A model generated the notes under the pieces. That model searched no databases. It was not told the origin of the DNA and saw nothing but the letters and a program-made list of their open reading frames with translations. 38,159 nucleotides of DNA from a virus (lineage: Duplodnaviria; Heunggongvirae; Uroviricota; Caudoviricetes): positions 1 to 38,159 of the IMG/VR virus record IMGVR_UViG_3300045988_123528. The stretch is one strand, 5' to 3'. Below are positions 9,943 to 28,724 of the stretch, piece by piece (position 1 is the stretch's first letter; each line of letters begins with the position of its first letter). Both the position numbers and the translations under genes were made by a program.

Positions 9943-10433
9943 TCATGAGTCTGTTAAATGACGTTCAGAAATTCATTGAAGCCCATCCGGGGTGTACTTC
10001 CGGAGACATTGCGGATGCTTTTGCAGGTTACTCACGGCAGCGCGTTCTGCAGTCAGCAAGCAAGTTACGTCAGAGTGGGCGTGTGGCTCACCGTTGTGAA
10101 GGAGATACACGCAGACATTTCCCACGCCTGACTGAGAGAGCGCAGGAGCCGGAACCACAACCAGTTCGTGAAACCAGACCTGTGCGCAATTTCTATGTCG
10201 GCACTAACGATCCCCGGGTGATTTTGTGCCTGACCCGCCAGGCGGAAGAACTGGAGTCCAGGGGCTTATACCGTCGTGCTGCAACGGTGTGGATGGCGGC
10301 ATTCCGTGAAAGCCACTCCCAGCCAGAACGAAACAATTTTCTGGCGCGTCGTGAGCAGTGTTTACGGAAAAGCAGCAAGCGCGCTGTATCGGGTGATGAG
10401 TGGTATCTGTCAGGGAATTACGTGGGGGCTTAA
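9939..10433 (+). CDS. PerC-like (Pch-like) regulator
   Basis: ELESRGLYRRAATVWMAAF recalled as the PerC-family signature; family call unverified. Confidence 0.4.
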   Translation: MIMSLLNDVQKFIEAHPGCTSGDIADAFAGYSRQRVLQSASKLRQSGRVAHRCEGDTRRHFPRLTERAQEPEPQPVRETRPVRNFYVGTNDPRVILCLTRQAEELESRGLYRRAATVWMAAFRESHSQPERNNFLARREQCLRKSSKRAVSGDEWYLSGNYVGA

Positions 10434-11086
10434 TGAGTAATAAATATTGCCAGGAGTTGGTGGAACTGCGGAACAAACCAGCCCATGAACTGAAGGAAGT
10501 GGGTGATCAGTGGCGCACGCCGGACAACATTTTCTGGGGAATTAACACCCTGTTTGGCCCGTTTGTTCTGGATCTGTTCACTGACGGTGATAACGCCAAA
10601 TGTGCTGCGTATTACACGGCGGAAGACAACGCGCTGGCGCATGACTGGTCAGAACGTCTTGCGGAGCTTAAAGGGGCTGCCTTTGGTAATCCCCCATACA
10701 GCCGCGCCAGTCAGCATGAGGGGCAATACATCACCGGCATGCGTTACATCATGAAACATGCCAGTGCCATGCGTGATAAGGGTGGGCGCTATGTTTTCCT
10801 GATCAAAGCTGCCACCAGCGAAGTGTGGTGGCCGGAAGATGCGGACCATATTGCTTTTATTCGCGGGCGTATTGGTTTTGAACTGCCTGCCTGGTTTATC
10901 CCGAAGGATGAGAAGCAGGTGCCGACAGGCGCTTTCTTCGCTGGTGCTATTGCTGTTTTCGACAAGACCTGGAAGGGACCGGCAATTAGCTACATCGGGC
11001 GCGATGAACTTGAGGCATGTGGTGAGGCGTTTCTGGCGCAGGTTCGCCAGCAGGCGGAAAAACTGGTCAGGGAGATGGCGGCATGA
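10433..11086 (+). CDS. Phage DNA N6-adenine methyltransferase (orphan, Dam-like)
   Basis: WRTPDNIF...DLFTDGDN...AFGNPPYS motifs; start ATG overlaps upstream stop. Confidence 0.75.
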   Translation: MSNKYCQELVELRNKPAHELKEVGDQWRTPDNIFWGINTLFGPFVLDLFTDGDNAKCAAYYTAEDNALAHDWSERLAELKGAAFGNPPYSRASQHEGQYITGMRYIMKHASAMRDKGGRYVFLIKAATSEVWWPEDADHIAFIRGRIGFELPAWFIPKDEKQVPTGAFFAGAIAVFDKTWKGPAISYIGRDELEACGEAFLAQVRQQAEKLVREMAA

Positions 11087-24471: not shown

Positions 24472-24642
24472 ATGTTTGTCAAACCTGTTAAAGGGCGGTC
24501 AGTGCCTGACCCTGCCCGCGGCGACCTTTTGCCCGCCGAAGGGCGAAATGTTGACGAGAACAACTACTGGCTGCGCCGTGAAGCAGCGGGTGATATCCGG
24601 CGCGTGAATAAAAAGGTGAATACCGATGACGATAAGCTTTAA
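24472..24642 (+). CDS. Small hypothetical protein (56 aa) preceding the sheath gene
   Basis: SD GAGGA; overlaps the sheath start; below the track cutoff. Confidence 0.4.
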   Translation: MFVKPVKGRSVPDPARGDLLPAEGRNVDENNYWLRREAAGDIRRVNKKVNTDDDKL

Positions 24643-26122
24643 CACCATTCCGTCGAATACGCTGGTTCCGTTGTTTTATGCGGAAATGGATAACCAGGCG
24701 GCGAATACTGCACAGGACAGCGGAGCATCGCTGCTGATTGGTCATGCCAATAACGGTGCAGAGATTGTTGCCAACAGTCTGGTACTGATGCCGTCGGCAG
24801 ACTATGCACGCCAGATTTGTGGTGCGGGAAGTCAGCTGGCGCGTATGGTCGAGGCTTATCGCCAGACCGACCCGTTTGGCGAGCTGTATGTGATTGCCGT
24901 TCCTGAATCCACAGGCGCGGCGGCAACAGTTACGCTGACGGTGACCGGGGCAGCAACCGAAACCGGCACGGTGAATGTTTATGTGGGACGTACCCGCGTG
25001 CAGGCACCGGTGACCAACGGCGATAACGTCGCGACGATTGCCAGCAGTATCAAAGATGCCATCAATGCCGTTCCGGCCCTGCCGTTTACGGCCTCATCTT
25101 CGGCTGGTGTGGTTACATTGACCGCTCGCCATAAGGGGCTTTGCGGGAATGAAATTCCTGTCAGCCTCAATTACTACGGCTTCGGTGGGGGCGAAGTGCT
25201 GCCAGCGGGCGTACAGATTGCCGTGGCGACGGGGACCGCCGGAACGGGCGCTCCGGTTCTCACCGGCGCGGTGGCTGCAATGGCGGATGAGCCGTTTGAT
25301 TATATCGGTCTGCCGTTCAACGACACGGCCTCTGTTAACACGCTGGTGACCGAGATGAACGATACCAGCGGTCGCTGGAGCTATGCGCGTCAGCTGTATG
25401 GTCATGTGTATACGGCAAAGGCCGGCACACTGTCAGAACTGGTGAACGCAGGTGACCAGTTTAACCAGCAGCACATCACCCTGGCGGGGTACGAAAAAGA
25501 GACCCAGACGCCTGCCGACGAGCTGGCAGCCAGCCGTACCGCCCGCGCAGCGGTGTTTATCCGCAACGATCCGGCACGTCCCACGCAGACCGGTGAGATG
25601 GTGGGTATGCTGCCTGCGCCGAAGGGGAAACGGTTCACGATGACCGAACAACAGACCCTGCTGTCTCATGGCGTGGCAACGGCGTATGTCGAAAGCGGGG
25701 TACTGCGCATTCAGCGTGATGTCACCACGTACAGGAAAAACGCTTACGGGGTTGCGGATAACAGCTACCTCGACAGTGAGACACTGCATACCAGCGCGTA
25801 TGTACTGCGCAAACTGAAATCCGTCATTACCAGTAAGTACGGGCGTCACAAGCTTGCCAGTGACGGTACCCGCTTTGGTCCCGGTCAGGCGATTGTCACC
25901 CCGGCGGTGATCAAAGGGGAACTGCTGGCAACCTACCGTCAGCTTGAGCGTGCGGGGATCGTGGAAAACTACGAACTGTTTAAGCAGTACCTGGTTGTGG
26001 AGCGTGATGCCAGCGATCCGAACCGCCTGAACACGCTGTTCCCGCCTGACTATGTTAACCAGTTGCGTGTCTTTGCCGTGGTTAACCAGTTCCGTCTTCA
26101 GTATTCAGAGGAGTCTGCATAA
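24626..26122 (+). CDS. Contractile tail sheath protein (Mu L-like)
   Basis: 498 aa, Mu-type sheath size and sequence character. Confidence 0.85.
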   Translation: MTISFNTIPSNTLVPLFYAEMDNQAANTAQDSGASLLIGHANNGAEIVANSLVLMPSADYARQICGAGSQLARMVEAYRQTDPFGELYVIAVPESTGAAATVTLTVTGAATETGTVNVYVGRTRVQAPVTNGDNVATIASSIKDAINAVPALPFTASSSAGVVTLTARHKGLCGNEIPVSLNYYGFGGGEVLPAGVQIAVATGTAGTGAPVLTGAVAAMADEPFDYIGLPFNDTASVNTLVTEMNDTSGRWSYARQLYGHVYTAKAGTLSELVNAGDQFNQQHITLAGYEKETQTPADELAASRTARAAVFIRNDPARPTQTGEMVGMLPAPKGKRFTMTEQQTLLSHGVATAYVESGVLRIQRDVTTYRKNAYGVADNSYLDSETLHTSAYVLRKLKSVITSKYGRHKLASDGTRFGPGQAIVTPAVIKGELLATYRQLERAGIVENYELFKQYLVVERDASDPNRLNTLFPPDYVNQLRVFAVVNQFRLQYSEESA

Positions 26123-26478
26123 TGGCCCGTATCGGGGGAACCTGTTATTTCAAAATTGACGGTCAGCAGCTATCGCTGACCGGCGGCATTGAGGTGCCCA
26201 TGAACAGGACGGTCAATGATGACATCATCGGCCTGGACGGTTCAGTGGACCGCAAGGAAACTCACCGTGCGCCTTATGTCAAAGGGACCTTCAAGGTGCC
26301 GAAGAATTTTCCGGTGAACAAAATCACCTCGTCTGATGAGATGACAATCACTGCCGAGCTGGCGAACGGTCAGGTCTATGTACTGTCGTCTGCCTGGCTG
26401 CACGGCGAAGCGAACCATAATGCCGAAGAAGGCACGGTTGATCTTGAGTTCCACGGTGAAGAAGGGGATTACCAGTAA
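26122..26478 (+). CDS. Tail tube protein (Mu M-like)
   Basis: 118 aa immediately after sheath. Confidence 0.8.
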   Translation: MARIGGTCYFKIDGQQLSLTGGIEVPMNRTVNDDIIGLDGSVDRKETHRAPYVKGTFKVPKNFPVNKITSSDEMTITAELANGQVYVLSSAWLHGEANHNAEEGTVDLEFHGEEGDYQ

Positions 26479-26747
26479 TGAAAGAGCTTGAGTTAAAGAA
26501 ACCGATTACCGCTCATGGCGAGACACTCTCCGTACTGGAGTTTGATGAGCCCACCGGGAAAGATGTCCGCGAGCTGGGATATCCCTACCAGATGAATCAG
26601 GATGAGTCCGTCAGACTTCTGGCGCATGTGGTATCGAAATACATCGTGCGGCTGGCGAAAGTGCCGCAAAGCTCTGTCGACCAGATGTCTCCGGCAGACC
26701 TGAATGCAGCGGCGTGGCTTGTGGCCGGTTTTTTCCTCCAGGCCTGA
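26478..26747 (+). CDS. Tail assembly chaperone (short form)
   Basis: 89 aa upstream of tape measure; contains slippery TTTTTTC near its 3' end. Confidence 0.7.
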   Translation: MKELELKKPITAHGETLSVLEFDEPTGKDVRELGYPYQMNQDESVRLLAHVVSKYIVRLAKVPQSSVDQMSPADLNAAAWLVAGFFLQA

Positions 26748-26896
26748 CGGCTGAATACCTCACTGATCGCTTCTTTGACTGCGCCAGTTACTGGCGCATT
26801 AATCCTTTCGAATTGCTGAATATGCCGATCAGTGAAATTCCCTTACTGGTCAGTCAGGCAAACAGGATAGAGCAGGAGAAACGCACACATGGCTGA
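26478..26896 (+). CDS. Tail assembly chaperone, -1 frameshift-extended form
   Basis: Slippery heptamer T TTT TTC at about 26729-26735; the -1 frame stays open to 26896 and overlaps the tape measure start. Confidence 0.55.
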
Positions 26897-28724
26897 ATTT
26901 GAGCTTAAGGCGTTGATCACCGGTGTCGACAGGCTTTCTCCGGCGCTGTCGAAAATGCAAAAGAAAATCCGGGGATTTAAACGCCAGGCGGAAGAAGCGT
27001 CACAGGGTGGGCTGGCGCTTGGTGGCGGACTGGCAGCGGGTCTGACGCTTTCCCTGAAATCTTATGCCGATCAGGAAAACGCCGCCACCGGGCTGAAAGT
27101 CGCCATGATGGATGCGAACGGCGAGGTTGGAAAAAGCTTTCAGGACATCAATAAATTGGCTATTGGCCTGGGTAACCAGCTACCCGGTACAACGGCTGAT
27201 TTCCAGAACATGATGCAGATGCTGGTGCGTCAGGGGATCCCAGCAGAAAACATTCTGGGTGGTGTGGGTAAAGCGACAGCTTATCTTGCGGTACAACTGA
27301 AAAAAACACCGGAATCGGCAGCCGAGTTTGCTGCAAAGATGCAGGATGCTACCGGAACGGCGTCAGAAGACATGATGGGGCTGTTCGACACTATCCAGAA
27401 AGCGTTTTATCTGGGCGTTGACGATACCAACATGTTGTCCTTCTTCACTAAAACCAGTTCTGTTCTGAAGATGGTGAATAAGGACGGTCTTCAGGCTGCA
27501 CAGAGCCTTGCCCCTATCAGCGTCATGATGGATCAGATGGGGATGAACGGGGAGTCGGCAGGTAATGCCCTGCGAAAAGTTATTCAGTCCGGATTAAGCG
27601 TTAAGAAAATCAGGGACGTCAATAAAGTCATGGCCCGCCAGAAACTCGGAGTGCAGCTCGATTTTACTGACGGCAAAGGGAGTTTTGGCGGTCTTGATAA
27701 CATGTTCAGGCAACTGGCAAAGCTGCGAAAACTGACCGACGTTAAGCGAACAGGTGTACTTAAGGCAATATTTGGTGATGATGCCGAAACCCTTCAGGTG
27801 GTCAATGCACTAATCGATAAAGGAAAGGATGGCTACGATCAGATCCAGCAGAAGATGAATAAACAGGCCAGCCTGAATAAACGTGTTCAGGCCCAGCTTG
27901 GTACGCTGTCCAACCTGTGGGAGGCAATGACGGGGACCGCAACTAACGGCCTTGCGGCTATTGGCGGCGCATTTTCTGGTGACGCCAAAAATATCACGCA
28001 ATGGCTGGGGGAGTTGGGGGAGAAATTCACGAAGTTTGCGGATGAAAATCCCCGGGTTATTCGCGGCGTCGTCGGGCTTGCTGCCGGTCTTGCGATTCTG
28101 AAACTGGGATTGATGGGCGTTGGCGGTGCCATCAGTATTGTCAGCAGGATCATGTCGATGACGCCGATTGGCATGATTGCGACGGCGATAGCCCTGGCTG
28201 CGGGATTAATTATCACTAACTGGGATGTTGTCGGACCTTATTTTAAGAAACTCTGGGAAACCATTAGTCCTTATTTTGAGGCTGGCTGGGAACTTCTGAA
28301 GAAGGTTTTTGCCTGGTCGCCGCTGGGGATGGTGATCAATAACTGGGGACCGGTTGTTAAGTGGTTTCAGGATATGTGGGATAAGCTGAAGCCGATTATT
28401 GAATGGTTTACCGACAGTTCCGGTGACACGGTCGATGCCATTAACTCTGCGCAGTGGGGCGCGGGTGCTTATGATGCTTATGGGACGGGAATACCGGCGC
28501 GGGGATACAAACCTTATCCGGCGGTAGATCTGGCTCAGTCAAACAACGCCTCCGGTGCCACAGGCCCAAATCCCTTCATGATTAACAAAGCTTCTGCGCC
28601 AAAAGTTGATGGTGAGATCAAGGTCTCTTTTGTGAATTCGCCTCCGGGTATGCGGGTTATGGAAACGCGATCCAGCGGTTTTGATGTCAGCCATGATGTT
28701 GGCTATACGCGCTTTGGCAGGTAA
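26889..28724 (+). CDS. Tail tape measure protein
   Basis: 611 aa, Gly/Ala-rich hydrophobic stretches, position after chaperones. Confidence 0.85.
   Translation: MAEFELKALITGVDRLSPALSKMQKKIRGFKRQAEEASQGGLALGGGLAAGLTLSLKSYADQENAATGLKVAMMDANGEVGKSFQDINKLAIGLGNQLPGTTADFQNMMQMLVRQGIPAENILGGVGKATAYLAVQLKKTPESAAEFAAKMQDATGTASEDMMGLFDTIQKAFYLGVDDTNMLSFFTKTSSVLKMVNKDGLQAAQSLAPISVMMDQMGMNGESAGNALRKVIQSGLSVKKIRDVNKVMARQKLGVQLDFTDGKGSFGGLDNMFRQLAKLRKLTDVKRTGVLKAIFGDDAETLQVVNALIDKGKDGYDQIQQKMNKQASLNKRVQAQLGTLSNLWEAMTGTATNGLAAIGGAFSGDAKNITQWLGELGEKFTKFADENPRVIRGVVGLAAGLAILKLGLMGVGGAISIVSRIMSMTPIGMIATAIALAAGLIITNWDVVGPYFKKLWETISPYFEAGWELLKKVFAWSPLGMVINNWGPVVKWFQDMWDKLKPIIEWFTDSSGDTVDAINSAQWGAGAYDAYGTGIPARGYKPYPAVDLAQSNNASGATGPNPFMINKASAPKVDGEIKVSFVNSPPGMRVMETRSSGFDVSHDVGYTRFGR

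Follow-up and report, generated by a model that had tools for sequence, protein, structure and literature searches.

Gene order and anatomy of the locus

The DNA analysed here, a stretch of 38,159 nucleotides that is called the window throughout, contains the tail gene locus of a phage or prophage of the SfI/SfV group. The 901 bases around the site described below are 98-99% identical to SfI, SKA5, vB_EcoM-689R6, SfV and SfII, and matches to lambdoid early regions were found in the left part of the window. On the plus strand, from position 24626 onwards, genes were found in the order tail sheath (498 aa), tail tube (118 aa, 26122..26478; PF10618 Tail_tube, E = 3.3e-33), an 89-aa ORF, tape measure (611 aa, 26889..28724; PF10145, E = 4.7e-27), DNA-circulation protein and Mu gp44-like baseplate hub, and each of them gave a Pfam match. 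The tube gene adjoins the 89-aa ORF on its upstream side, the TAA of the former overlapping the ATG of the latter in the sequence TAATG, and the tape measure gene, preceded by an AGGAG of its own at 26874-26878, starts with an ATG at 26889. The surrounding tail module can be classed as Mu/SfV-like, not P2-like.

The 89-aa ORF (26478..26747, plus strand), whose frame is taken as the 0 frame, encodes a tail assembly chaperone of the family PF10109 (Phage_TAC_7) and is the counterpart of P2 gpE and lambda gpG. It matched PF10109, a family described as 'Phage tail assembly chaperone proteins, E, or 41 or 14', with E = 1.9e-16 and 60.3 bits (cut-off 25), residues 4-86 covering profile positions 2-78 of 79; it also matched PHROG 166 'tail protein' with E = 7e-24, and it lies between the tail tube (PF10618) and tape measure (PF10145) genes. 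The protein ends in ...WLVAGFFLQA*, and the end codons of the gene are GGT (26727), TTT (26730), TTC (26733), CTC, CAG, GCC and TGA (26745-26747). Within these codons, the slippery heptamer T TTT TTC was read from the sequence at 26729..26735 (plus strand), in frame as X XXY YYZ. Three sense codons stand between the heptamer and the stop, and the TGA is the fourth codon, which confirmed the earlier claim, made in a sequence-only reading of this DNA, that T TTT TTC lies about four codons before the stop of the 89-aa chaperone.

A second ORF, with codon starts at 2 mod 3 vs 0 mod 3 for the first, runs in the -1 frame, which opens well before the heptamer and stays open as far as 26896. Read from 26735, this frame in the ORF list provides an extension of 53 sense codons, PPGLTAEYLTDRFFDCASYWRINPFELLNMPISEIPLLVSQANRIEQEKRTHG, followed by a TGA stop at 26894-26896 (26735..26896, plus strand), and it is the counterpart of P2 E' and of the lambda T segment. 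As 49 of the 53 sense codons lie past the 0-frame stop and the extension overlaps the tape measure gene by 8 nt (ATGGCTGA), the sequence-only reading also held in its second point, namely that the -1 frame continues for about 50 more codons and overlaps the tape measure start. The -1 extension matched PHROG 32181, 'unknown function', with E = 4e-40, and gave no Pfam or NCBIfam match. Joining the two frames in silico, as join(26478..26735, 26735..26896), gave a predicted trans-frame product of 139 aa (span 26478..26896, plus strand) with the predicted fusion junction ...WLVAGFF|PPGLTAEY... and the predicted junction peptide ...AGFFPPGLTAEY... / ...WLVAGFFPPGLTAEYLTDR. A phmmer search of the predicted fusion against PDB sequences returned only spurious light-harvesting protein matches, and NCBIfam held no model for the predicted fusion, the extension or P2 E+E'.

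Annotation of the region in public records

The chaperone and tape measure genes are separated by 141 nt, at 26748-26888 in the window and at 649-789 in the genome locus L110 (NZ_AP022098). In RefSeq/PGAP and in SfI, SfV, SfII, SfIV, ST64B and phiP27, these 141 nt are either unannotated or assigned to a separate hypothetical protein, and in ON470584 a separate 60-aa hypothetical protein is called there. A frameshift is unmarked in the records of SfI, SfV, EPP-1, AH07, F1055, SfIV, ST64B, phiP27 and BgVeeders33 and in the RefSeq E. coli annotation. The word 'frameshift' is absent from the SfI and SfIV genome papers, and in the literature searched no paper was found that combines TTTTTTC, tail assembly and frameshift. 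Nor did this literature explicitly describe the site in phages of the SfV lineage, and an earlier mention is possible (Xu et al. 2004; Christie et al. 2002). Neither the mechanism nor the protein family nor the phage group is new, so the finding itself is already known, and it is an annotation gap, not a discovery, that is described here. Were join(26478..26735, 26735..26896) annotated as ribosomal slippage, thousands of prophage records would gain an essential tail-assembly protein.

Conservation of the heptamer and the split arrangement

Taken by itself, the pattern of a heptamer followed by an ORF is weak evidence, because T6 runs are at chance level in the window, with 45 found vs 38.5 +/- 8 expected and thus no enrichment, and because an in-frame heptamer followed by a long -1 ORF was encountered in 4 cases among all ORFs of at least 80 aa on both strands, when the heptamer was allowed at most 25 codons from the ORF end and at least 30 extra -1 codons were demanded. 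The other three cases were judged to be short ORFs that overlap larger ORFs in another frame or strand. An 83-aa ORF at 10503-10754 (plus strand) carries an in-frame AAAGGGG at 10670, near its end, and then a 136-codon -1 ORF; it overlaps a larger ORF (10400-11086) and probably is not a genuine gene. For the chaperone locus, position, homology and conservation combined put the heptamer arrangement, as a feature of sequence, far beyond chance.

About 90 distinct relatives from several bacterial genera, with identities down to about 35-40%, carry T TTT TT(C/G/T) at the same codon, and in all of them the -1 extension comprises 49-63 codons and ends at the tape measure start. Using the predicted 139-aa fusion as the tblastn query, both halves were recovered as separate pieces in 23 phage records, the most distant of them about 40% identical. 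In SfIV, ST64B, phiP27, F1055 and the Burkholderia phage BgVeeders33 (~40% identity), T TTT TT(T/C) stands at the same codon and Phe85-Phe86 are invariant; the 0-frame stop comes 10 or 21 codons after the heptamer in these five phages, vs 3 here, and the extension still measures 52-54 codons and retains the motifs [YF]W[RK]-[ILV]-[ND]-P and A-[NV]-R-I. The fusion lengths across relatives were 129-150 aa and those of the 0-frame product 89-111 aa (annotated records). Among genome loci from different bacterial species, TTTTTTC was present in 17/17 and the 8-nt tape measure overlap in 14/17, and among viral contigs the arrangement with the heptamer was found in 62/62 complete distinct loci, which are 43-92% identical to one of the 17 genome loci. 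A closer alignment was used for the genome scan; a diverse 8-sequence alignment was too divergent. The arrangement also occurs in three phages or phage-like elements that are more remote, Pseudomonas phage DVM-2008, Pseudomonas phage PG1 (from Stutzerimonas) and Bordetella phage PBb002, and the split arrangement is carried by 1086 of 5426 complete E. coli genomes.

At the nucleotide level, GGT TTT TTC was invariant in 16 distinct close relatives in which third codon positions are otherwise nearly saturated; Ala83 and Val82, beside the heptamer, show all four bases at the third position in the same set. GGG TTT TT(C/T) was seen in 3 of 80 near-identical prophage copies (the IMG/VR contigs L024, L055 and L061, position 1752), where the change of GGT to GGG is synonymous and breaks the first heptamer position; these copies may have reduced frameshifting or be decaying prophages. 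The only complete relative without the heptamer is the Paraburkholderia phage IPK (L111, PV588664, UNVERIFIED), which reads GGC TTC TTC. In IPK (701-1200), the chaperone ends in ...MGFFGQG, and the -1 frame that encodes the conserved extension, LAHFWNVSP...AVRIAEK, opens no earlier than 9 nt upstream of the 0-frame stop. Either this phage is recoded at another kind of site or its sequence contains an error.

Selection on the extension and absence of its own start

For the part of the extension outside the chaperone ORF, the pairwise differences by -1-frame codon position were 685 / 438 / 1333, the third position being the most variable, and both other frames are interrupted by stops in all sequences (2-7 per sequence). 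The extension thus bears the signature of protein-level purifying selection in the -1 frame only. In 15 of 26 relatives, no ATG, GTG or TTG was found in the accessible -1 frame near the site; no start codon of the extension is conserved, and an SD-like motif was present in 0/26. In several relatives, the -1 frame opens just 7-12 codons upstream of the heptamer. The GTG at 26714 in the window arises solely from the juxtaposition of an Ala codon with a final G and the Trp codon TGG, and this position reads CTG in many relatives. Being selected and without its own start, the extension must be entered from the upstream frame, and the only conserved entry point is the heptamer.

A probable programmed -1 frameshift and its alternatives

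Given the comparison with relatives and the P2 slip site at the same profile position, the locus is best explained, with a high degree of confidence, by a programmed -1 ribosomal frameshift that would give the 139-aa fusion. In E. coli, one tRNA-Phe decodes both UUU and UUC, and on U UUU UUC the P-site and A-site tRNAs can fully re-pair in the -1 frame. A ribosome translating the 89-aa gene would reach UUU (Phe85) in the P site and UUC (Phe86) in the A site (26730-26735), and in a minority of passes both tRNA-Phe would move back by one base onto U UUU UU, both codons then being UUU. After the slip, -1 decoding would continue with CCU CCA GGC..., bypass the TGA at 26745 and end at 26894-26896 inside the tape measure start. 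Two proteins with the first 86 residues in common would be made in this way, the 89-aa chaperone in abundance and the 139-aa fusion more rarely. If they work as lambda gpG/gpGT and P2 gpE/gpE+E' do, their common N-terminal part would bind the tape measure protein, and the extension would bring in tail tube (perhaps also sheath) subunits and so allow the tube to polymerise around the tape measure; neither the chaperone nor the fusion would end up in the virion. We infer the ribosomal nature of the shift, and likewise its efficiency and the binding partners of both protein parts.

As to the strength of such a site, Sharma et al. (PMC4066793) reported that the A-site tetramers U_UU.C and U_UU.U are second only to A_AA.G, and they count the H_HH.U_UU.Y group, to which U_UU.U_UU.C belongs, with the most efficient -1 motifs of E. 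coli. For UUUUUUC, Table S3 of PMC4066793 lists 0.12% frameshifting when no stimulator is present, 0.89% in combination with the IS911 signal and 7.6% in combination with the IS3 pseudoknot. At the present locus, RNAalifold found no consensus structure 5-9 nt 3' of the heptamer, and a canonical 3' stimulator at this distance was rejected, as only a 3-4 bp stem could be drawn and this was not conserved; in the upstream alignment, no SD-like element stood out by eye. With no conserved stimulator and 0.12% for the bare UUUUUUC, the efficiency here is not predictable. For P2 and its relatives, no downstream stimulatory structure has been reported (PMC3091744), and P2 frameshifting is said to be two to three times more efficient than that of lambda (PMC5009743), which contrasts with the ~0.1% of T6-type heptamers in stimulator-free reporters.

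The same 139-aa protein would also arise if RNA polymerase slipped at T6 and added one U, generating a minority mRNA that is then translated in the standard way. With one inserted U, the message would read GGU UUU UUU CCU... and specify an amino-acid sequence identical to that of the ribosomal slip product, and because the products are identical, protein data cannot separate transcriptional from ribosomal slippage. A 5-bp hairpin at 26715-26727 (plus strand), flagged as terminator-like by a pattern scan, lies directly before T6, and stem-loop-mediated slippage with a hairpin before the run was described by Penno et al. 2015, to the extent that this work is cited in PMC5009743. Individual sequences do fold here, but the relatives equal the shuffled controls, with pairing of 64.6% vs 63.7% in shuffles (18 sequences) and no structure from RNAalifold; the hairpin is not conserved and was rejected as a slippage stimulator. 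Moreover, about 90 relatives strictly keep the X XXY YYZ register in frame, a requirement of tRNA re-pairing but not of polymerase slippage. Six U are also short for productive slippage by E. coli RNA polymerase, the known cases having about nine, and the P2 and lambda events are assigned to the ribosome. We consider transcriptional slippage improbable.

Two further readings dispense with slippage of any kind. The downstream ORF could be a separate small gene of 60 aa (26714-26896, GTG start), as annotated in vB_EcoM-689R6, and the ORF list does hold this GTG-initiated ORF, one GenBank record (ON470584) calls it a hypothetical protein and PHROG 32181 collects such ORFs; yet 15/26 relatives have no ATG/GTG/TTG in the accessible -1 frame, no SD-like motif is present, and the GTG is a by-product of Ala-TGG, all of which makes an independent gene highly implausible. 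It is equally hard to credit that nothing is recoded and only the 89-aa protein is made, the locus being a single gene decayed by a homopolymer indel, an assembly error or a chance overlap. Such an explanation would fit the chance level of T6 runs, the four occurrences of the heptamer-plus-ORF pattern among ORFs, and four single-member database proteins (P0001-P0004, 112-139 aa) that run on into the frame of the extension and span all or most of the fusion. These four proteins, with scattered indels and frame changes elsewhere, are probably products of noisy assembly, and because of their indels they are not evidence for a natural fusion either. However, the split arrangement recurs in 1086/5426 complete E. 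coli genomes and in independent lineages, from Enterobacteriaceae to Pseudomonas, Burkholderia and Bordetella, and the extension is under -1-frame purifying selection, whereas a dead remnant would gather stop codons. The number of genomes and the purifying selection together exclude a pseudogene or assembly error.

A hairpin inside the extension

The only consensus structure that RNAalifold returned was a perfect 8-bp hairpin, UGCGCCAG-UUA-CUGGCGCA, at 26780..26798 (plus strand; as DNA, TGCGCCAG-TTA-CTGGCGCA), which covers the codons Cys-Ala-Ser-Tyr-Trp-Arg and lies 44 nt 3' of the heptamer. This is too far from the slip site for a canonical stimulator, and under the frameshift model the hairpin would be located in a stretch translated by frameshifted ribosomes only. 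The third positions of the stem (TGC, GCC, TAC, CGC) were invariant in 16 distinct relatives, the loop position being A/C/T; the clustering test gave P about 0.03 after scan correction, and one compensatory G-C to A-U double change was found in the stem, in L132/L138. In sister clades with a CAKYWK peptide, the hairpin is lost, the same third positions vary and the frameshift site is kept. A role as a repeated DNA operator was rejected, since the hairpin occurs a single time in the window. That it is a functional RNA element, which sets the frameshift level at long distance or controls the stability or translation of the chaperone/tape measure message, seems doubtful, with some chance of being right; if true, such a long-distance effect might lift the 0.12% heptamer to a useful frameshift level.

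Comparison with known frameshift systems

By sequence comparison, the closest known system is P2 E/E+E' of the PF10109 lineage, not lambda G/GT. In the P2 record, E has 91 aa, the -1 site is annotated at TTTTTTG, E' comprises ~50 codons, and E+E' overlaps gene T by 8 nt; the P2 FETUD tail operon goes back to Christie et al. 2002, as far as that study is cited in PMC3091744 and PMC5009743. P2 E matched PF10109 at 1.4e-12 over residues 7-85, compared with residues 4-86 of the window ORF, and the profile ends at the slip site in both. P2 and the window are also alike in a T6-type heptamer at ...V-x-G-F codons, the slip-site Phe being one of five invariant alignment columns, in a -1 extension of ~50 codons with an 8-nt tape measure overlap, in the contractile tail, and in having no downstream stimulatory structure near the site (for P2, PMC3091744; for the window, RNAalifold). 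They differ in the heptamer, TTTTTTC in the window vs TTTTTTG in P2, and in the 0-frame stop, which comes 3 codons after the site in the window vs 6 in P2. Furthermore, P2 E+E' matched PF06528 (GpE') at 1.2e-21, whereas the window fusion gave no PF06528 match at E <= 0.1. Homology of the extension to P2 E' was not supported, with a BLASTP E of 0.37, an hhalign E of 0.008 and probability of 5% against P2 E+E', and no PF06528 match; the extension (PHROG 32181) can be placed in a different or very divergent sequence family vs P2 GpE'.

Lambda G/GT resembles the window in that the chaperone is encoded between the major tail and tape measure genes, the -1 slip occurs near the 3' end of a small ORF, and a short abundant protein is accompanied by a rare extended one, both the slip and the pair being predictions for the window. 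In lambda, the partner of the G part is the tape measure protein and that of the T part the tail tube protein, and neither gpG nor gpGT is in the virion (PMC5009743); the work of Levin et al. 1993 and Xu et al. 2004, 2013, 2014 is drawn on here as summarised in that article. On the other hand, lambda slips at G GGA AAG, with different tRNAs, and its tail is non-contractile. No sequence homology to lambda gpG/gpT was detected, and Pfam searches with the ORF and the fusion gave only PF10109, so lambda G/GT can be regarded as an analogue by position and mechanism only, not as a detectable homologue. The sequence-only reading had identified the conserved G/GT-type chaperone frameshift of tailed phages: the features of a tail-chaperone frameshift are indeed present (PF10109, position, heptamer, a selected extension, no own start), but the 'G/GT' type has to be replaced, P2 E/E+E' being closer. 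With E. coli dnaX and IS3/IS911, the window would share tandem tRNA slippage on an X XXY YYZ heptamer; those systems need an upstream SD-like element and/or a hairpin/pseudoknot 5-9 nt downstream, and neither is conserved in the window.

Mu resembles the window in its neighbouring genes, as the flanking sheath, tube, DNA-circulation protein and baseplate hub genes are Mu-type. Mu gp41 (L092, NC_000929, 3553-4131), a protein of 144 aa, scored 24.7 bits against PF10109, just under the cut-off of 25, and has no in-frame -1 heptamer; the window ORF gave no match to PF23746 Gp41_Mu in the Pfam scan, which returned only PF10109. In Mu, the ORF toward the tape measure gene lies in the +1/-2 frame and runs 43 codons past the stop, whereas in the window a stop ends the +1 frame 2 codons beyond the 0-frame stop, and it is the -1 frame that stays open. 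The Mu +1/-2 ORF agrees with the short statement '-2 in Mu' that PMC2628397 attributes to Xu et al. 2004. Mu-type neighbours together with a -1 heptamer therefore indicate that SfV-like phages combine Mu-type tail genes with a P2-type chaperone frameshift, and the present locus would confirm that phages of this kind use a P2-type -1 site and not the -2 arrangement of Mu.
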